In this document: positions 4,960 through 58,220 of the stretch, piece after piece
How the letters are laid out: each line of letters starts with the position of its first letter
Numbering within the stretch: the stretch's first letter is position 1
Assembly (NCBI GenBank): GCA_951406725.2
Contig: OX597831.1
Location: forward strand, 7,750,001 to 7,814,000
Source: Octopus vulgaris
Lineage: Eukaryota
Reading direction: 5' to 3'
Length of the DNA stretch: 64,000 nucleotides
Made by a program: the position numbers and the translations under genes
Notes under the pieces: model-generated
Seen by the model: the letters and a program-made list of their open reading frames with translations, nothing else
Database searches by the model: none
What the model was told of the DNA's origin: nothing

Positions 4960-5368
4960 TCTTACTCTTTTACTCTTTTACTTGTTTCAGTCATTTGACT
5001 GCGGCCATGCTGGAGCACCGCCTTTAGTCGAGCAAATCGACTTATTCTTTGTAAGCCCAGTACTTATTCTATCGGTCTCTTTTGCCGAACCGCTAAGTGA
5101 CGGGGACGTAAACACACCAGCATCGGTTGTCAAGCAATGCTAGGGGGACAAACACAGACACACAAACATATACACACACACCTATATATATATATACATA
5201 TATACGATAGGCTTCTTTCAGTTTCCGTCTACCAAATCCACTCACAAGGCATTGGTCGGCCCGGGGCTATAGCAGAAGACACTTGCCCAAGGTGCCACGC
5301 AGTGGGACTGAACCCGGAACCATGTGGTTGGTTAGCAAGCTACTTACCACACAGCCACTCCTGCGCCT
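4960..5368 (-). mobile_element. tRNA-derived CORE-type SINE (octopus OR-like), full length
   Basis: Head ggcgcaggagtggctgtgtggtaag..ggttccgggttcagtccc (A/B boxes), CORE-like gcaccttgggcaagtg, central (TG/TA)n and (GAGTAAAA)n tail. Near-identical copies at 7481-7885 and 18055-18469. Confidence 0.85.
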
Positions 5369-7480
5369 ATGTATATGATACATATATAATACAAAACCAC
5401 ATTAAAATACAAATCCAAAACTGAAGATTACACAATCATGAGCAAAGAGCGAGAATAAAAAGAAGTAAAAAATGGAGCAAAGAGGAGAAGAAAGAAAGAA
5501 AAGACATCAATTCAACACCAAATGCCTCAGTTGGTCACTTACCACAAGGTTCAATGGAACCTACTGAAGCAGGCCAGCATGCTTGCAGTATTACCACAGG
5601 TGATGACGAGGCTAAGGCATCAGAACAGCCAAGCACCTGTAAGGGCATCACCCGACTCCTCTTGATTGTTTTCAAAATTAATTGAAACATTTGAAATATG
5701 ATTATAAAAAGGTTAAATGTTCTACTTAAGGAGGTGCAAAAGCCTCACCAAAACCCTGAAATATCCCTTTCTTGAATGAAGAACCTTAAAAATGCACCAT
5801 CTCAACTTCCTAGTGAGATTTATTTTATGGGTTCCAAAACACCAACCCATTCTTAGTGAATTACCAATATGGTTGTTTCAAATTTGTCTGCTGATAAGAA
5901 ATTTTCAGTTGTGAGGAATCGGTTGAAAAATATCTCAATCTTCTCAAAACAAACATCTCAGTATTCATGTAGAGAACTCAAGAAACATGATTTTATCTGG
6001 CCTACAAGAACCACACAAAGTAAGGCTCAGTCTAGCATCAACAGGAGAGAGAGGGACAATGGGTTTACTTTCCACTTAATATCATTGCTGTGGTTAACAC
6101 ACACACACACACACACACTTTTTCTTGTCAAAGTTTACATTCTGCCAAAGTGCATACATATAAACACACACACACACATACACTGTGTGTGTGTGTGTGT
6201 GTGGTTAAGAAGCTTGCTTCCCAGCCATGTTTTCCAGTTCAATCCCACTACTTGGCTCCTTGGGCAAGTGCTTTCTACTATAGCCTTGGGCCAGCCAAAA
6301 CCTTGTGAGTGGATTTCATAGATGGAAACTGAAAGAAGCCTGCCATATATGCTATTGATGCTATTGTATGTCTGTCTTAACTGTACATCCATGTCTTGTA
6401 CTCATGTGTCCATGTGTATGCATAAGTAATCAATCATCATCATCATCATCATCATCCACACTTTGATGTGCACTTTGCTATAACGGCATGGATGGGGCAA
6501 ATATGTCCCTACACATAGTGTTTCCATTTGACTTTAGTGAGGCTCAGAATCCTGCAATCAAATTTCACCACTTCTGTCTACATCTTCCTTGATATTTCTC
6601 TTCCGTATGACCCTTCTACTTGCATCATTTACCCGACTCTCATTTTTCATACGCACCACATCTTCATTAATGCAGTCTTCTGCACTGATATCTCTAAAAT
6701 GCAGTTTATAGCTGATAGCACTAAAATCTAGTTTGGTTTTCCGGCGGCCCCTTGTGCTCCTTCACTGATGCATGCTGATGTGAAGCAGTCAGTGGAGCAT
6801 GACCATTTTCTTTCCTTTTTGCCATCCAGAAAATCGTTATTCGAAATAAATAATGAAAGAAATCATTGATGTCATTGAATAAAACAAACCTCCATCACTT
6901 TCAGCAATCAGTGTTCCTGTTGTTTGATCAACCAAACTGTCTGGTTATTGAATCAAGTGGTTGAATACCCCACAGACACATGTACCCTTCATTCTCTGCC
7001 ATAATCAGTACCATGCAGTGTATGACAAAGTTGGGCCTTTGAATAAATGGTACAGTCTATCCGTTAGGCTGCCACAGTTTGTTTGCCCAAATTCACTCAC
7101 AACACTTGGGTTGATACCAGTCTGTGGTTAAAAACTCTTGTTCAAAGTGCCACACACTTGGATTGAACCCAGAACCAAATAGCTGCAAAGGAAACTTTTT
7201 ATCTACTCAGCCATATTAACATCAAGGACATACCATATTGATGGCATAGAAGACACCCATTTTTTCCCCTTAAAATCTCTCAGAAAATCACTCCAGATCC
7301 TTTATGTGAAGTTGCTTTTAATATTCCATGCTTTAGTCTATTGAGAACTTATTTCCCTAAATATCTGCTGCTGAAATTGCAGTGCATCTAATGTCCCTGT
7401 GCATCTTTTATGCTAAAACAAATACAGTAACTCTATAAATCTGTAACTTCTCTTGGAAATGTTAAAATAAATGCTATCAT

Positions 7481-12868: not shown

Positions 12869-13237
12869 GGTATTTATTCTTGTTTGTTCCATTCTGTGTT
12901 CAAATTCCACCAAGGTCAGTTTTGCTTTTTATCTCTGGCAGGTTTGTTAAATAATACTTTGCAGGTTTTGTTGCAGTTCTTTACATTTTGAGTTCAAATC
13001 CTTATTGAGGAGAATTGGAAGAACTGGTGGAATGATAGACAAAATGCCTTGTGGTATTTAAGGGTTTACACTTTAGTCCTGAAATGAAATCACACTTTGG
13101 CCAACTTTGCCTCTGATTCTCCCAGAATTGATAAAATAACAACCAGTCATGTACTGGGGTTGATATAATCAGCTGTGCCCCCACACTGAACTTCTGGTTG
13201 AGTACTACATATGAAATCAATATTATTATCATTACGG

Positions 13238-13455
13238 AAGCAGCAACAGCAGCAGCAAATGGCAGCAGTGTGATGATGGTGGTGGTAGTAGTAGCAGCAG
13301 CTGCAGGGATGGCAGTGGTAGTGATGGAGTTGGTGGTGATAGTGGCGGTGGTGTTGGTGATGGTGATGGGGTTGGTAGTGGTGGTATTATTATTATTATT
13401 ATTATTAGTAGTAGTAGTAGTAGTATTTGTAGTAGTAGTAGTAGTGGTGGTATTT

Positions 13456-13488
<33 letters not shown>

Positions 13489-13560
13489 TTTGTAGTAGTA
13501 GTAGTAATAGTAATAGTAGTAGTATTTGTAGTAGTAGTAGTAGTAGTGGTATTTGTTGTG

Positions 13561-13599
<39 letters not shown>

Positions 13600-13602
13600 T
13601 TC

Positions 13603-13636
<34 letters not shown>

Positions 13637-13637
13637 A
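13238..13637. repeat. Compound (GCA/GTG/TTA/GTA)n microsatellite
   Basis: Seen directly; explains the poly-T and poly-V ORFs. Confidence 0.95.
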
Positions 13638-13771
13638 GTAAAGCTGATTGCTGAGTGGAGATACCTTATGGAATTTGTTCTGGAAATAATATTTCTCCCC
13701 TGATAAATAACTTTGTGTAAGTTCTGACAAATAAATTCTTACCTTTGTGTTTATTTGTGTTTCTTTTGCAG

Positions 13772-13851
13772 GAAGCTATGAATGATATTAACCAGTTTGA
13801 TAAGAAATTAGAAAGCGCTGCTGTAAGTCTAGACATCGACACGAAAGACAT
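13772..13851 (+). CDS. SPEF2: SPEF2-like coding exon (EAMNDINQFDKKLESAAVSLDIDTKD), phase 0 to 2
   Basis: Pyrimidine tract and ttgcag acceptor ending at 13771; GTATGT donor at 13852. The peptide resembles vertebrate SPEF2 'DVADEIKKFE...ESASKTSLD' as recalled. The split codon AT|C joins in frame to exon 26371. Confidence 0.7.
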
Positions 13852-18469: not shown

Positions 18470-18709
18470 CACCATTTGACATGTTTTTCCATGCTGGCAT
18501 GTGTTGGACAGAGTTTATTTTTCAGATGTTAAAACATGTTTTTCTCTTCTGTTGATAATCAATTGTACTCAGCTTCCAATTTCCCGTTCTTCTTACAGAG
18601 CTAATCAATTGAAAGTGAGCAGAGTTAAAGCTTGCACTCAATTGATTTGTTGATATTTCATGCTTAATGATTTCATATAATTGTTCCGGCCTCATTCTCT
18701 CATCTTAAC

Positions 18710-18711
<2 letters not shown>

Positions 18712-18742
<31 letters not shown>

Positions 18743-19465
18743 TTGATGGCCTCATTCTTTCATCTCTCCTCTCTCTCATCCACCCTCATTCTCTCATTCT
18801 CTCTCATCCACTCTCATTCTCTCATCTCTCATTTTCTTATCTCTCTCATTCTCTTATCCTCCCTCAATCTCTCCTCCTTTCGCATTCTGTCATCTCATTC
18901 TCTCATCTCCCCCATCTTTCTCATCTTCTTTCATTCTTTCATCTCTCTCGTTTTCTCATCTCTCTCATTCTCACATTCTCTCATTCTCTCATCCTCTCTC
19001 ATCCTCTCCCATTCTCTCATATCTCTTATCTTCTCTCATTCTCTCTCATTCTCTCCTCCTTTCACATTCTGTTATCTCATTCTCTCATCTCCCCTATCCT
19101 TCTTGTCTTCTTTCATTCTCTCATCTCTCTCATTCTCTCATTTTCACATTCACTCATCTCTCTCATCCTCTTTCATTTTTTCATTCTCATTCTCTCATCT
19201 TCTCTCATCCTCCCCCATTCTCTCGTATCTCTTATCTTCTCTCATACTCTCATCCTCTCTCATCTCTCAATGTCTTCTCTTTCTCATCCTCTCTCTCTCT
19301 CTCTCTCATTTTCACATTCTCTAATCTCTCTCATCCTCTTTCATTTTTTCATTCTCATTCTCTCATCTTCTCTCATTCTCTCACCCTCTCTCATCTCTCT
19401 CAATGTCTCCTCTCTCTCTCTCTCTCTCTCTCTCCCTCCCTTTCTCTCATTTCATTCATTCAATG
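18712..19465. repeat. (CAT)n followed by about 700 bp of degenerate (TCTCAT) pyrimidine-rich low-complexity sequence
   Basis: Seen directly; almost no G on the + strand. Confidence 0.9.
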
Positions 19466-20240
19466 CATTCAGTTTTTCTTTCCCTTTATCTTTTATTTAT
19501 CGAACCTGTTTCAAGAACATCAAAGCCACACTTGGAAATTGTTTCAAACAGCATCACTTCTACATTCAGCCAACTATTTTTACAGCAGTTTTCATGCATT
19601 AACATGCAGTAAATAGATATGATCATAAATTCAGGTGGAAATTGATTATGTCAGTGTCAAGGAGAAGACACCTGGTATTGATTGATCATAACTCCAGTCT
19701 TGCAGTGTCTCCACAAGTTTAGGAAACTCAGCTAAATATGGCTCTGTTTAGCAAAACTTGTAATCATAACGCAAGTATGAAGTGAGAAAGTGAATGAAAA
19801 ATTTGCACCAGAAGTAAATATGATTTGAGATTCCTATTTAGTTCTTCAATAACCCTAATAGCATTAAGGCTGGAAAGACAGGTGAGGTGAAACAAATATC
19901 AAGCACATTGTTTAACACTGCCTTCACCAATAAGAACACGGATGTTGTTCGTGAGCAGAATATTAGCTTTGACAGCTCCTGTTTCTTTGATTGAGTTGTT
20001 GCAGCTGACAGTGTCTAAGCCAGCTCATGAATATATCATCTTGGCATGAGACGACTCTATCCATACTTGCTAAAAGAAAATGGAAGCATTTGGAATTACC
20101 ATTGTCAGCTTACTTTAAACAGATGTACATTTGTTTGGTTGTTTGTTTGTTATGTTGCTAGGATCCTTTCTGGAGAACAATACTGAAGACATAGGTTCAT
20201 TCAGTACTGGAACCGATTGGAGAAAATTATTATTTGGGAA

Positions 20241-20568
20241 CAATTGCAGCGTGGAAGTTGTTTATAAGCCATTTAAAAAACACACGAAAATCGTTAGATT
20301 CACTTCAACATTTAAATTTAATTTTCCAAAATATTTTCGTCGCTTGAGACCGTGACCTGTTCACTGACAAAACTTCGTGCTGCATCAGTGAACAGGTTGC
20401 AGTCTCAAAGCGACGAAAATATTTTGACAAATTAAATTTAAATGTTGAAGTGAATCTAACGGTTTTTGTGTGTTTCTTAAATGGCTTGTAAACACCTTCC
20501 ACGCTGCAATTGTTTTCGTTCCAGCACATGATCTCAGATCAAATCACTCGCTATGCAAGTACATCTCC
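20241..20568. mobile_element. Penelope-like element remnant with inverted-repeat (pseudo-LTR) structure
   Basis: Inverted arms of about 130 bp (about 20239-20368 and 20385-20514), a 13-bp TSD tattatttgggaa (20228-20240 and 20569-20581), and a hammerhead-like motif in each arm. Confidence 0.7.
20385..20431 (+). ncRNA. Minimal type I hammerhead ribozyme-like motif, G3:C8 variant; second copy on the - strand at about 20322-20372
   Basis: tca-GTGAACA-G-GTTGC-loop-GCGAC-GAA-AATATT-T-TGACAAA gives the core boxes, stem II and a palindromic stem III. The stem I partner TTTGTCA is preserved in the opposite-strand copy. Confidence 0.6.
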
Positions 20569-22991
20569 TATTATTTGGGAATTAATAAATTAAGCAATTC
20601 TTTCTAATTTGGTTCAAGATCAGCAACTTTTAGGGGTGAGGAGGGTAAGGCAATTATAGCAACCCCACTGCTTAACTGATATTTATTTTATCAACCCCGA
20701 ATGGGCAAAAGACAAAGATAACCTAAGTAGAATTCGAACTCAGAACATAAAGAGCCAGTGGAAATACTGCCAAGAATTTTGGTAATGTGCTGAGGATTCT
20801 GCCAGTTTGCTGCTTTCAATAAATCAAGGAGTAAAAACAAAAAACCCTTAAAAGCTGATGGTGATGTGTGAAGGAAGGATTTTGGCTGGAGAAAGAAGAG
20901 AATCTGATTTGTTCTGAAACATAAGACACTGTTTTGCTATTTTCTTTCTTAGTGAAGGGAGCGCTTTAGTTTTAGAAGTTACAAAGTGACCCCACTCCTG
21001 CTGGTGCCATGCAAAAAGCATCCAGTTAATTTTGTAAAGAGGTTGGAATTAGGAAGGGCACCTAACCATCCATAGAAACCATGCCAAAACTGAGCCACAG
21101 GAGCAAAGCATGGGTCTTTGATTCATGGATCCTATCAAACAACCGTCCAGCTGATTCCAGGATGGAAATCAAATGCTCTCAAGTGTTGGATTCTTCTTCT
21201 TCTTTCCATTACGTATCAACTGCACTGAATCAGTAAAATGAGGCCCCCAGGAAACTCTACTGGTGTTTGTTACCTGAGTTGGGTTGGTCAGATCTTTTTT
21301 ACGATTGTTTTGGTATCTGTTAGCTTCTCAGTAATATTGTGTGAATCTTGTTTGAAGATTTCAGAATTCAAATATATGTATTTCTATTTTGAAGATGATA
21401 AAGTTTATTGAATGAAATTTAGTTGTTAGAGTTCAAGAAGTAAACAGGTGTGACAACCAATTTACTGTGGAATATTTCAGTCTGTATTTGCTGTGAAACT
21501 TTCATGTTTCAACTAATATTCATAAATTTGTATCTTTTCTTTTATTTCTTCACTGCTTGGAACTTCTCAGTTTATTATTATTATTATTATTATTATTGTT
21601 GTTGTTGTTGTTATTGCTGCTGATGTCAATACTGTTCTTGGTAGTGGTGGTATTGTTATTGTTGATGATTATGATGGTGGTGGTGATGGAAATGATGAAC
21701 TGGCAGATTCGTTAAGACATTGAAAAAAATGCTTTGTGGTATATTTTTCCAGCTCTTTATGTTCCGTGTTCAAATTGTAGTGGGTCAACTTTACCTTTCA
21801 TTTTTTTTTTTTGGATTGGGGGGGGGGTCAATAAAAGAAAGTTGCAGTCAAGTACTGGAGTTGATGTCATCAACTTGTGCACACCTAACATTGCTGGCCT
21901 TGTGCCAAAACTGGAGACCGTTATTATTAAGGCAGCAAACTGACAGAATTGTGTCAGGCAAAAAGGCTTTGCAGCATTTCTTCTGACTCGTTGCATTCAG
22001 AGTTTAAATTCTTCTGAGGTTGACTTTGCTTTCATCTTTTGAGATTGATAAAATAAATACCAGCTGAGTACTGGGGGCCATTGTAATTGACTAGCCTTCT
22101 CCTCCAAAATTTCAGGCCTGTGCCTTAGAAAGAACTTTTATTATTATTTTTTCTTCTTCTTTCAATTTTGTTTCCATTTCTTGCTAGGTGTCTTCCCAAC
22201 ACCTTGGGCAAAGAAACACTGTATTCTTTGGTAGGCCATTAAAATAAACATATAAAATTTTTTGTCTACAAAGTCTATTTCAGCGATCCCTCTTTATAGG
22301 GTGTCTTGCTATATCACATCCCCACATATAACGTGGGTGTTTTGATGAACCCGAAATAATTTGAAACAGAATTTCCCTCATTATCGCTCACAACTTGCAA
22401 AAACCTTGATTAAAAGCAGAATTTCAGTGAATTTCAATGAAATACATACCTTTAATCAACAGCTTGAAAATATTGCAATCAGATAACATATAATTGACTG
22501 CTAATTACATGTTTTGTGTGCATAATTTCTTTGATTTTGTAATGAAAACAACACCTTTTTAACTGGTGAGCACTTTTGATAGTTTGTTTTCCTTGATTTG
22601 ATTGGATTGTTTGAAGAAGCTTCCGCCAATCAAAGGGTTTGAATGAGTCAAACAAATTTATATTTAAAGGAAGTAATTAATACCCTGGAGGTATGATTTA
22701 TATAAAAGTGAGACCATATTCCACTTGATTCATTACAATTTCAAGTTATCATCATCATCATCATCATCGTTTAACGTCCGCTTTCCATGCTAGCATGGGT
22801 TGGACGGTTCAACTGGGGTCTGGGAAGCCCAAAGGCTGCACCAGGCCAGTCAGATCTGGCAGTGTTTCTACAGCTGGACACTGCCAGATCTGACTGGCCT
22901 GGTGCAGCCTGGTGCAGATATTTAAAAAAAAGTTTACCTGGTGCAGCCTGGTGCAGATATTTAAAAAAAAAGTTTACCTTTTGAATGCACA

Positions 22992-33661: not shown

Positions 33662-34029
33662 GTAGGAATATATTAGCTTATTTATTATTTATTATAGGTT
33701 TTATATTTTAAAATCTGTTGGCCGTATTCATGATATTTAATAAGTCATGCTGCTGCTACTGCTGCTACTGTTGCTGTTTGCCCTCAGGTCAGCTCCAGAT
33801 AAGCAAACCTCTGTCCAAATGAATATCAGTTGTGTCTCTCCTATCAATTTTGTATATAGGACCATATCATTCGATATTTTCCTCAGATATAGTGTATCTA
33901 AGACTACACTATCCAATGCATACTTCCTTTTTAAGATGGGGTGGGTGGGTGATTGGGGGTGGGGGTGGGGTGGTTTACTGGTTATATTAAGGCTGCTCCC
34001 TTGTTCATTTCAATGAATAAATTTTGACT

Positions 34030-34615
34030 CAATAGGCTGCTACAATGAACCCCAATGTTCCTATATGCCAATAGGCTGCTACAATGGGCACCAATGCTCC
34101 TTTATGCCAATAGGCTGCTACAATGAACCCCAATGCTCCTATATGCCAATAGGCTGCTACAATGGGCACCAATGCTCCTATATTCCAATAGGCTGCTACA
34201 ATGGGCACCAATGCTCCTATATGCCAATAGGCTGCTACAATGGACACCAATGCTCCTATATTCCAATAGGCTGCTACAATGGGTACCAATACTCCTATAT
34301 GCCAATAGGCTGCTACAATGGACACCAATGCTCCTATATTCCAATAGGCTGCTACAATGGGTACCAATGCTCCTATATGCCAATAGGCTGCTACAATGAA
34401 CCCCAATGCTCCTATATGCCAATAGGCTGCTACAATGAACCCCAATGCTCCTATATTCCAATAGGCTGCTACAATGGACACCAATGCTCCTATATGCCAA
34501 TAGGCTGCTACAATGAACCCAATGCTCCTATATTCCTATAGGCTGCTACAGGGGCACCAATGCTCCTATATTCCAATAGGCTGCTACAATGGGTACCAAT
34601 GCTCCTATATGCCAA
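34030..34615. repeat. 39-bp minisatellite, about 15 units
   Basis: Unit caataggctgctacaatg(aacc/ggca/gaca/ggta)ccaatgctcctatat(g/t)c. Confidence 0.95.
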
Positions 34616-46777: not shown

Positions 46778-47624
46778 CAACCATGACTGTACCAAGTACA
46801 TCAATCGGACATCTACATATCTATAAGTCTAATTCCTCTGTCCGCTTGATATTGATTATTCTAGATTGATTCGATTGGCTTATAGTTTTAAATTTGAATC
46901 ACAAAGGAAATTTTACGGTTAGTTAGTCAAGAAACGCACATGCACATCCACAGATCATCGCACATACATACATAATTATATGTATACACACACACATACA
47001 CTCATACACATACATAGCCACAAACACAGACAAACACATAAATAAATAAATAATATAAGAGGTATAATCGTAACTATGCAGCCATCAAGCCTCTCCAAAA
47101 TGACAACAATGCCGCTATATTAACTAACAATCATAAATAACAGAGAAGCAGTTTGAAATTTTATTTAACAATAAGAAAATTCAAATGTCATGGCAAATTG
47201 TTTCGTAGCTTAAAAACATGTAGATAGTTTATGTTATTATATTTCATAATAAATAAATTACTTACATGTCTGCATTAGTACAAAATGCCAAAAGATTTTT
47301 CAAAGTAATGCAGAATTAAAGCCAAATCATTTGTGACTTTCTGCCGTCCTCATTGCTTTCTCTTGTGTCGTAAATATATATTCTAAATGTTTTGTAGAAT
47401 AATACATTAAAGAGCCTTTTTTTTTTTACATGAGTACTCCTGGGTTACTGGAATCCTAATACTGTGACTTGGATTTATGTATATTAGCACAGGTGTGGCT
47501 GTGTGGTAAGGAGTTTGCTTCCCAAACCCATGTTTCCAGCTTCGGTCTCACTGCATAAACACCTTGGCACTGGGGCAAGTCTCTTCTACTAACCCATACC
47601 AGCATGGGAAAGTGGATACTAAAA

Positions 47625-47633
47625 TGATGATGG

Positions 47634-47671
<38 letters not shown>

Positions 47672-48110
47672 CATAATGATGTTGGTGATGGTGATGATGG
47701 TGGTGCTGTTGATGATGATGATGGCAGTGATGATGATGATATTGGTGTAGGTGATGATGATGATGGTGATGGTAATGGTGGTGGTGATGATGGTGGTGGT
47801 GGTGGTGATGGTGATGATGATTATGATGATGATGGCAGTGATGATGATGGCAGTGATGATGATGGCAGTGATGATGATGGCAGTGATGATGATGATATTA
47901 GTGTAGGTGATGGTGGTGGTGGTGATGGTGATGGTTATGATGATGATGATGGCAGTGATGATGATATTGGTGTAGGTGATGATGGTGATGGTGGTGGTGA
48001 TGGTGATGGTGGTGGTGGTGGTGGTGATGGTGGTGATGGTGATGGTGATGATGATGATGATGGCAGTGATGATGATGATATTGGTGTAGGTGATGGTGAT
48101 GATAACTATG
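47625..48110. repeat. (GAT/GGT)n compound microsatellite with recurring ggcagt and attggtgtaggt variants
   Basis: Seen directly. Confidence 0.95.
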
Positions 48111-49485
48111 AAGCATGTCAGAAAAGCTGTCCACGTATCTCTAATGTGGATGCTGTCATAGTGTGTAGCAAGTCTGATAAAACCGGCTTTTGCTGAATAC
48201 AAATAAAAACTAATCCTTTATTTTAACAGCTCCTGGAAACGATCTGATGGTGTCTTTGAAACTGTATTAAAACTTTATCATCTTGGAATTAATTTTATTT
48301 CTGTTAACACATTCATATTTGCTAATTTCTATAGATTCCTTTTCTTCATATTATATTTAAAACTTTTAGCTACTCTTCTTTACATTTGCAAGGTTATAGA
48401 AATACAAAATGTACCAGCATAAACGGGGTTAGAACAACTTTGATGTATACATAAGCTCATAAAGCACAAAAATATTAAAGACAGGTATGCCATAGAAGTG
48501 GCAACTATTACATTCTTATTCTTTCATTCAAAATTCAGCATTGAAGCTTACAAGATATATTTTAATTCCTCTTATGAAGTTGTTTATTCATTGTGAGTGC
48601 TCTATAACTATTTAGAAATTAGTTGGAGCTATAACCAATGCCTATAGGGAATATTTGAATGGAAAGAATGAATTTTAAATATAGGCCGGTGGTGGCAGAG
48701 GCTGTGTTTGTGTGTAATCATTGGTTTTTGTTGACTTCCCTTTCTGGCTTGGATTGGTTGGGCCAACCCTGGCCAAGTCAGTTTTTATTCAGAATTCCCT
48801 TTTAGATGAGTTGGGGAATTATGTGTCACTCTTACATTTCCATTTTGGCATGGTTTCTATGGCTAGATGCCCTTCCTAAGACCAATCAGAGTGTACTGGA
48901 TACATTTTATGATGCACAAGTACTAGAGAGATTGTCGTGTCCTCAACACAACACAAGAACTCTCTCTAGCCTTTTGCTGACCCTGTCCGATTACCAACCA
49001 TTCTACAGAATATTCTGGGTGCATTTAACATAGAGAAGTTGCCAAGGCAGTTGCAGCAGCAACAGTAATTCACAGTGTAAGAATTTGAGAAAGAAAATTC
49101 ATATTTGGCAAATTGTTTTTGGAACTGAGGAGTATTGCCATTATATTCCGCACTATGGTATTTCAAGAACCAAATATGTTCTTTTGTCATATTTGGGCAT
49201 TCTCTCAAAACTACTCAACAATGTGATTCAATAATATTTAATGTAATTTAAATTATGATAGGTTTTAACATTTAAAATTGTGAACCTTTCCCAAGTGAGT
49301 TGGGAGTATGGTTTCTAGCCAAGAATTCTAAAAGCCGATAAAAGCTGATTCCAAATAGAAATCATGTGAATAGACGTAGGGTAAACTCTTATTTAGTACT
49401 ATTTCAATTGTCAAACTAATTTAAATAAATGTTTGTAAAGAACAAGAATATTGTGTATTTCAAGAAAAATGATGTTTCATTTCAG

Positions 49486-57261: not shown

Positions 57262-57385
57262 TGATGATGCTGGTGATGGTGATGATGATGATGATGAGGA
57301 GGAGTAATGTCTCATCAGTTACTGTCTTCTAATGGTTCAATCATTGACTCAGTGAATTTCTGATGGCAACAGTGAAAAATTGTGT

Positions 57386-57512
57386 TATGATGCTGGTGGT
57401 GGCTGCGGTGATGGCAGCTGCTATGAGGATGATGATGATGGTGACAATGGTGATGATGGTGATGATGATGATGATGATGACGACGATGATGTTAATGACG
57501 GTGACAACGATA

Positions 57513-57551
<39 letters not shown>

Positions 57552-57840
57552 GTGACAATGATGACAATGGTGATGATGATGACGATGATGCTAATGACGG
57601 TGACATCGATAATGATGATGATGATGATGGTGGTGACAATGATGACAATGGTGATGATGATGACGATGATGATGATGATGATGCTAATGACGGTGACAAT
57701 GATAATGATGATGATGATGGTGACAATGATGACAATGGTGATGATGATGACGATGATACTAATGACTGTGACAACGATAATGATGATGATGATGACAATG
57801 CTGCTGCTGCTGATGATGATGATGATAATGCTGATGATGT
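57386..57840. repeat. (GAT/GAC)n microsatellite with higher-order units of about 60-70 bp
   Basis: ggtgacaatgatgacaatggt..gacgatgatgctaatgacggtgacaa recurs about four times. Confidence 0.95.
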
Positions 57841-58220
57841 ACATTTTTCTAAAGCTATTTGGCTTGGCTCTCATAAATAGAAAGTTTGCAAAGAAGTTCT
57901 TTGACTTCAACTTTGTCTTCTCATTTATTAAAGTTGCTCTCCGAACCACAGAAGCGGTTCTTAAAGCTTCTTCTCTTCCATTTATTTATGGTGTTCCGAT
58001 TTCAGGTCAAATCCAGATGTTTCTTCTTTCCGTGCAGACTCTTTTCCGCTTCCATTGTTTCTTATTCCATCCATTCGTATTGAAACGTGTGTCCTCGGCA
58101 TTTAGATTTCAACCAAATACTTTTCTAGTTCTTTCTATGATAAATGTACCATTTTTGGTTTTGTCTTGCTTTCGGCTCTATCAGCCGCCTTTGGTCGCAT
58201 AAAACCTCTTTTGCAATATC

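Follow-up and report, generated by a model that had tools for sequence, protein, structure and literature searches.

A truncated Penelope-like insert in Octopus vulgaris and its family of predicted minimal hammerheads with a G3:C8 pair

Minimal hammerhead ribozymes are an established feature of Penelope-like elements. In the accessible part of Cervera and de la Pena (2014; PMC4209133), they are described with an extra base after A9, a palindromic stem III, weak cleavage as dimers, and U3-A8 variants. The accessible part of Frangieh et al. (2024; PMC11167929) reports that C3G/G8C partly rescues cleavage of a Penelope hammerhead, that cleavage is protein-assisted and dispensable for insertion in vitro, and that the tail of the element reflects two reverse transcription (RT) starts. 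An internal promoter in the pseudo-LTR (pLTR) is known for Penelope from the available portion of Schostak (2008). The type of element treated here, its build, its minimal hammerheads, and natural U3-A8 are therefore all known already. Concerning a natural G3:C8 hammerhead family, none was found in the searchable literature, the coverage of which is incomplete, such that an earlier report is possible.

Here, these systems are compared with an insert at 20228..20581 of the window (the whole stretch of Octopus vulgaris DNA analysed, 64 kb in length), for which a Penelope origin and two non-canonical minimal hammerheads had been proposed (the original prediction). We read the insert as a truncated pLTR core of an EN+ Penelope element and the motif of its family as a predicted minimal hammerhead, in which C3:G8 was likely swapped to G3:C8, and we propose a route for RNA start and RT; this reading as a whole is given a probability of about 0.8. 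The insert is composed as follows:

20228..20240, no strand: target-site duplication on the left, 13 bp, of which the final 2 bases could equally belong to the element (repeat match)
20241..20386, minus strand: inverted pLTR-core copy without tail, spanning the common 5' start point through the short 3' end (family comparison)
20241..20272, minus strand: first ~11 ORF codons of the element, on the inverted arm (match to autonomous element)
20322..20371, minus strand: minus copy of the predicted minimal type I hammerhead, with its core at 20364-20358, G12 at 20338, and position 17 at 20329 (folding, descriptor, subfamily comparison)
20385..20431, plus strand: predicted minimal type I hammerhead, plus copy (folding, subfamily comparison)
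20385..20568, plus strand: forward pLTR-core copy, 5'-truncated and tailed, sharing a 2-nt overlap with the inverted arm at their junction (family comparison)
20481..20568, plus strand: first ~29 ORF codons of the autonomous element, with an in-frame stop (match to autonomous element)
20515..20568, plus strand: tail of Penelope type, occupying the ~55 nt that separate the two 3' ends, on the forward arm only (family comparison)
20569..20581, no strand: right target-site duplication (repeat match)

The predicted length of 328 bp was confirmed, the insert being situated between two exact 13-bp repeats (20228-20240 and 20569-20581, TATTATTTGGGAA); because the last two A's of the left repeat also match the element end, the target-site duplication measures 11-13 bp. 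Likewise, the inverted arms of around 130 bp were recovered (20239-20367 and 20385-20514, pairing over 107 nt at 93% and over 24 nt at 88%), but these arms are not terminal inverted repeats: one is a forward copy that is truncated at its 5' end and retains the tail, the other an inverted copy that lacks it. Among 43 other copies that lack a TA tail, 13 showed target-site duplications of 9-14 bp, and the inverted arms of other copies mostly end at the same short 3' end as that of the window, around 55 nt before the forward 3' end. The insert is a short, dead Penelope-type copy, i.e., the truncated pLTR core (around 200 nt) of an EN+ Penelope-like retrotransposon, with an inverted arm. Elsewhere in the 64-kb window, no second copy of the element was found, and by inspection no host exon is evident beside the insert. 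The window further contains abundant interspersed repeat families (at 20646-20827, starting 65 bp past the insert, 2019-2470, 2640-2900, 4960-5370, and others) and long simple-repeat tracts (13000-13780, 18700-19600, 34000-34540, 47450-48220, and 57340-58200).

In the plus copy of the predicted hammerhead, a stem I remnant of 3 nt (20385-87) is followed by G3 to A9 (20388-94), the extra G (20395), stem II (20396-20400/20410-14), G12 (20415), the palindrome (20418-23), position 17 at 20424, which agrees with the cleavage position predicted before, and the 3' strand of stem I (20425-31). Both copies are partly decayed, as had been noted: the plus copy, whose stem I is mostly lost at the arm junction, keeps 3 bp of this stem, and the minus copy is mismatched in stems I and II. 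The motif obtained in the original prediction by combining the two arms corresponds to the family majority, though it is chimeric, stem II reading GTTGC in the plus arm and GTCAC in the minus arm, with GTCGC as predicted. Dimer folding between the two window copies is ruled out from one transcript, because they lie on opposite strands; a transcript across the insert is predicted to form a long hairpin (-187 kcal/mol). As modelled, both copies are likely inactive and the locus inert. An Rfam scan yielded no hammerhead match at E up to 10, and matches to miRNA precursors were discarded, being far under thresholds and reflecting the insert hairpin. A strict descriptor, which allowed any 3:8 pair and required at least 5 bp in stems I and II together with a palindromic stem III, had no match in 40 simulated 64-kb sequences and was passed by 66 of 87 young copies and by neither window copy. 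An HDV-like fold at the shared 5' start of the family was rejected by inspection, there being no space for P3/P1 and no catalytic C.

Throughout the 2.8-Gb genome, a search with the right arm gave 3,074 candidates, 40 of which were scored. A 30-nt tail pattern matched 3,503 times and its younger variant 1,292 times (backward controls 0), and the core plus stem II (GTCGC with its partner strand) has 5,287 exact matches (backward control 0), a count that takes in inverted arms and Helitron-borne copies. Such counts overstate the number of independent events, because 34 of 90 tail-selected copies on contig C1 constitute a single insertion carried by a non-autonomous Helitron. At these loci (L084, L097, L098, and 31 more on G000:C1), an inverted-arm copy lies inside a Helitron-like element of ~2 kb with a TC start, a 3' hairpin, and a CTAG end.

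Copies of the unit occur solo, in tandem (2 of 30 loci), or with an inverted copy on the 5' side; the arms are optional, and their lengths and junctions differ among short copies. A few copies make up ~240-nt tandem arrays, and bare-unit arrays with TA spacers (L291 with seven tail-less units, L016, L006) could provide a dimer form. At L264/L330, G3:C8-family copies adjoin copies from the sister family, tail to tail at a common TA stretch. A unit at L059 beside the family with 781-aa frames was rejected as part of that family, since it is inserted into a MITE; this MITE (L059/L061, 935-1385) is ~450 bp long with short terminal inverted repeats and has 2,571 candidates, and in the copy concerned the truncated unit replaces ~55 nt without target-site duplication. 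A 3.4-kb unit pair (L196) was rejected as an element and represents a local duplication.

Concerning the autonomous element, the linkage to an RT plus GIY-YIG ORF that the original prediction had proposed to look for exists, which upholds the Penelope origin: the unit is present in 19 of 30 endonuclease-picked loci and in 20 of 20 wider regions (the two sets sharing one locus), mostly 840-1240 nt downstream of the endonuclease (around 1 kb past GIY-YIG). One locus (L256) contains a 1025-aa open frame with DKS, YVDD, a CxxxCxxC linker (zinc finger), and a GIY-YIG domain; the GIY-YIG is the only Pfam match, the RT being identified from motifs and from the labels of relatives. There are also 5'-extended copies (232 exact matches to the upstream sequence), one of which reached a GIY-YIG fragment, a second one an RT in decay. 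Tandem copies, at least 4 of 24 loci, show the unit running directly into the ORF; the window insert therefore comprises the hammerhead, the ATG of the element ORF (20481), and ~29 codons. In the G3:C8 family, the hammerhead ends ~50 nt upstream of the ATG, and both 3' ends of the pLTR unit are situated inside the first ~30 codons. The element has the composition of EN+ Penelope-like elements, i.e., a single ORF with RT and C-terminal GIY-YIG, a pLTR with ORF start, an optional 3' tail, partial tandems, adjacent inverted 5'-truncated copies, and target-site duplications. With the CX2-5CxxC linker and CCHH motif of the 1025-aa frame, its layout is, as assigned by motifs, that of Neptune/Nematis, either of the two being compatible. 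Contigs from four sequencing runs (presumably of RNA origin) contain the unit and three of them the ORF start, though such contigs give neither ends nor levels; among the contigs listed, no splice joint was found. The first endonuclease family found (781-aa frames) was set aside, as it possesses its own U3:A8 hammerhead without homology to the unit. It is a young Penelope family (L037, L042, L041, and related loci) with an ACAUGU palindrome ~90 nt from the 3' end.

The G3:C8 swap claimed for the window applies to the whole family: the core is GUGAACA family-wide, and C3:G8 occupies the homologous site in sister families. The literal CUGANGA core is replaced by GUGAACA, so a CUGANGA search would indeed miss the motif. 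Otherwise, the family shows what is expected of a hammerhead, namely a Watson-Crick 3:8 pair, U4, G5, A6, A9, G12-A14, A15.1-U16.1, and H17. The extra G after A9 is part of the family majority motif, but an extra nucleotide at this place is no novelty, being a general trait of Penelope minimal hammerheads (PMC4209133, accessible part). The palindromic stem III AAUAUU was also borne out; it is self-complementary, and its duplex is predicted to be very weak (-0.2 kcal/mol), while stems I and II of intact copies are predicted to form with a probability above 0.9 for inner pairs. Between the majorities of the young and older subfamilies (213 of 258 matches retained after dropping duplicates and Helitron passengers), none of 42 stem and core positions differs, compared with 4 of 8 in loop II (Fisher p = 0.0003) and 8 of 92 in the flanks (p = 0.045). 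No compensatory change was seen within the G3:C8 lineage, and a search of the genome for further G3:C8 families, distinguished by another stem II, did not exceed chance (148 vs 125 in the control, loops of up to 14 nt). A lone copy of the family (L389:1490-1540) exhibits U3 and G8 and a stem I deletion, being either decayed or a relic.

A sister family with about 54-58% amino acid identity to the G3:C8 element possesses a C3:G8 hammerhead at the same spacing from the ATG, and likewise TA targets and two 3' ends; the third family, that with the 781-aa frames, has the U3:A8 hammerhead mentioned above. Related canonical-core motifs number 2,352, vs 77 in the control. In an alignment of 21 rows, position 3:8 is occupied by C-G in 18 rows and by G-C in the other 3. 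Pairing holds in 88% of cells, and five pairs change on both sides, a number reached by 48 of 500 shuffles. Covariation, a check put forward in the original prediction for stems I and II, scored above 500 of 500 shuffles in these 21 rows, which span about four families, with the 3:8 swap counting as one event. Nine of 30 candidate rows were excluded (four near-duplicates, one further C9 copy, and four with indels or decay, of which L382, L384, and L385 have a broken 3:8 pair). G5, A6, G12-A14, and U16.1 are unchanged across families. Since the sister families carry C3:G8 at the same place together with paired stem changes, G3:C8 can be regarded as a natural compensatory swap, which on the alignment probably arose under selection to keep the pair. 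From the relatives and the accessible rows of the published alignment (PMC4209133), we infer that G3:C8 is the derived state. In a young sister subfamily, C is found at position 9 in 59 of 59 copies and A9 in older copies, which indicates that a damaged core does not stop spreading. Full tandems of this young C9 family exist at L360 and L361, with a 1312-aa open frame containing a long Asn-rich insert. Hammerhead-like motifs of other families are present near one end of L049 and in L338 (minus strand, ~3060), the types listed being U3:A8 with an extra base and C3:G8 with an ACCGGU palindrome.

The 5' ends were studied in 90 young copies, for which the tail was the sole selection criterion. Twelve of them extend upstream, 27 end between -5 and +2 of one point, 17 at +3 to +16, 10 at +17 to +54, and 24 further down, whereas none ends at the cleavage site (+55 to +59); the whole motif is retained in 56 and an inverted arm is present in 43. 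Directly ahead of the shared start, 22 of 33 copies carry a G at a position that is T or C in the element; one base further out, the sequence is mixed (T18, A9, C4, G2). In a wider, overlapping set, the extra G is found in 23 of 56 copies, and by a strict pattern in 2 of 6 older ones. When RT copies the cap, an extra G would result at the capped start; published support for a cap-derived extra G was not found in the literature searched. The shared start and the extra G are what would be expected of a capped, uncut template, and we read them as such. Of 56 older copies, 2 have their end exactly at the cleavage site, and in 10 the end falls within the 20 nt past this site, which could reflect some cut templates or RT stalling.

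According to the route proposed, the RNA of the element would start ~2 nt before ATGCAG and be capped, and the endonuclease of the element would nick AT-rich DNA. RT would then begin inside the RNA at one of two sites and copy back to the cap, giving copies of ~200 nt, and a second RT start would produce the inverted arm. On this view, short copies would represent complete products, each running from an RT start within uncut RNA up to its cap, and the template would be mostly uncut. The predicted ribozyme would cut slowly after UUU, either as a dimer via the AAUAUU palindrome or aided by the protein of the element, and is likely not needed for insertion; by analogy with the Anolis element, a slow, dimer- or protein-dependent ribozyme dispensable for insertion fits these observations.

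An origin from Penelope would also be compatible with a G3:C8 motif that no longer cuts and is retained as a fold, e.g., for protein binding, translation control, or as promoter sequence. This would agree with the lack of young ends at the cleavage site (0 of 90), the spread of the young sister subfamily with C9, the very weak stem III, and the hammerhead mutants without effect on in vitro insertion in another element (PMC11167929, accessible part). Catalysis, however, would call for a restored 3:8 pair, as brought about here by the double change, and for the constancy of G5, A6, G12-A14, and U16.1, and C3G/G8C is partly active in the laboratory (PMC11167929 and a review, both as accessible), such that we regard a loss of cutting as unlikely. 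Concerning the shared 5' start, spliced RNA instead of a capped transcription start has to be considered, since the upstream sequence resembles a branch point and an acceptor (CTAAC, a pyrimidine tract, and AG close by) and the intron of Drosophila Penelope ends at helix I (PMC4209133, accessible part). On the other hand, the AG is kept in short copies, one extra base (G) is common with the next base mixed, and a common upstream exon was not seen; splicing, which appears improbable to us, would touch the start-point step only and is compatible with the main reading. The unit might also be a non-autonomous element in its own right, whether SINE, retrozyme, or MITE with terminal inverted repeats, that is merely similar to a Penelope end; this might be suggested by the fact that most copies are short with one common 5' start, by the few ~240-nt tandem arrays, and by the inverted arms in about half of the copies (43 of 90). 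It is largely refuted and highly improbable, as long ORF-bearing copies end in this very unit, which also continues into the ORF, the arms differ between copies in length and junction, and short copies follow the subfamily variants of long ones. As to particular classes, a MITE or DNA transposon requires fixed terminal inverted repeats and a fixed target-site duplication, whereas here the arms are optional and variable and the duplication measures 9-14 bp; a non-LTR retrozyme consists of ORF-free non-coding tandems (in the sources as accessible), whereas here tandems occur in 2 of 30 loci only and the unit belongs to an ORF-bearing element.

Returning to a Penelope pLTR with a predicted, slowly cutting hammerhead, natural G3:C8 beside C3:G8 relatives provides an evolutionary check on the core pair, the swap being otherwise lab-made according to the searchable papers. 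Because CUGANGA-based searches and Rfam miss the motif, ribozyme counts for animal genomes would be too low. A puzzle is why Penelope elements keep a hammerhead apparently unneeded for insertion; it is directly testable in the octopus genome, where young families with intact ORFs carry four different cores. Taken together, and tentatively, this may be the first natural G3:C8 hammerhead family, fixed in an active retrotransposon lineage and part of a natural series of C3:G8, U3:A8, G3:C8, and C9, in which thousands of cap-marked, uncut 200-nt copies might record the in vivo use of capped, uncleaved RNA and the ribozyme might have been attenuated to act as a brake or a late switch; this wider picture is possible rather than probable.

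The predicted hammerhead is most similar to the metazoan Penelope minimal type I hammerheads in the accessible part of PMC4209133, with which it shares the pLTR position, the extra base after A9, G10.1-C11.1, the palindromic stem III, the occurrence of solo and opposite-strand copies, and predicted dimer activity. Differences concern the 3:8 pair, which is G3:C8 here, whereas the rows examined of that alignment have C3 or U3 only, and the extra base, which is G here and H in their consensus (one listed row has G); cephalopod terms did not occur in the searched part of the supplement. The element resembles Neptune/Nematis EN+ elements (10.1101/2021.04.23.441226; PMC3846280; accessible parts) in the C-terminal GIY-YIG with CCHH, the CX2-5CxxC linker, partial tandems, the inverted truncated copy, tail, and target-site duplication, microsatellite targets, and the pLTR with the first codons, whereas DKS replaces DKG and the tail is ~55 nt rather than 30-40 nt long. 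With Poseidon PAc of Anolis, as described in the accessible part of PMC11167929, it has in common a hammerhead beside the ORF start, two RT start sites in the ORF giving the tail, AT-rich targets, and an uncut RNA template, the last two being deduced from the copies in octopus. In PAc, however, the hammerhead overlaps the ORF, whereas it ends ~50 nt before the ATG in the octopus family, which has a zinc-finger linker in addition; and the natural pair of PAc is C3:G8, with G3:C8 existing just as a laboratory mutant, whereas the octopus family carries G3:C8 naturally.
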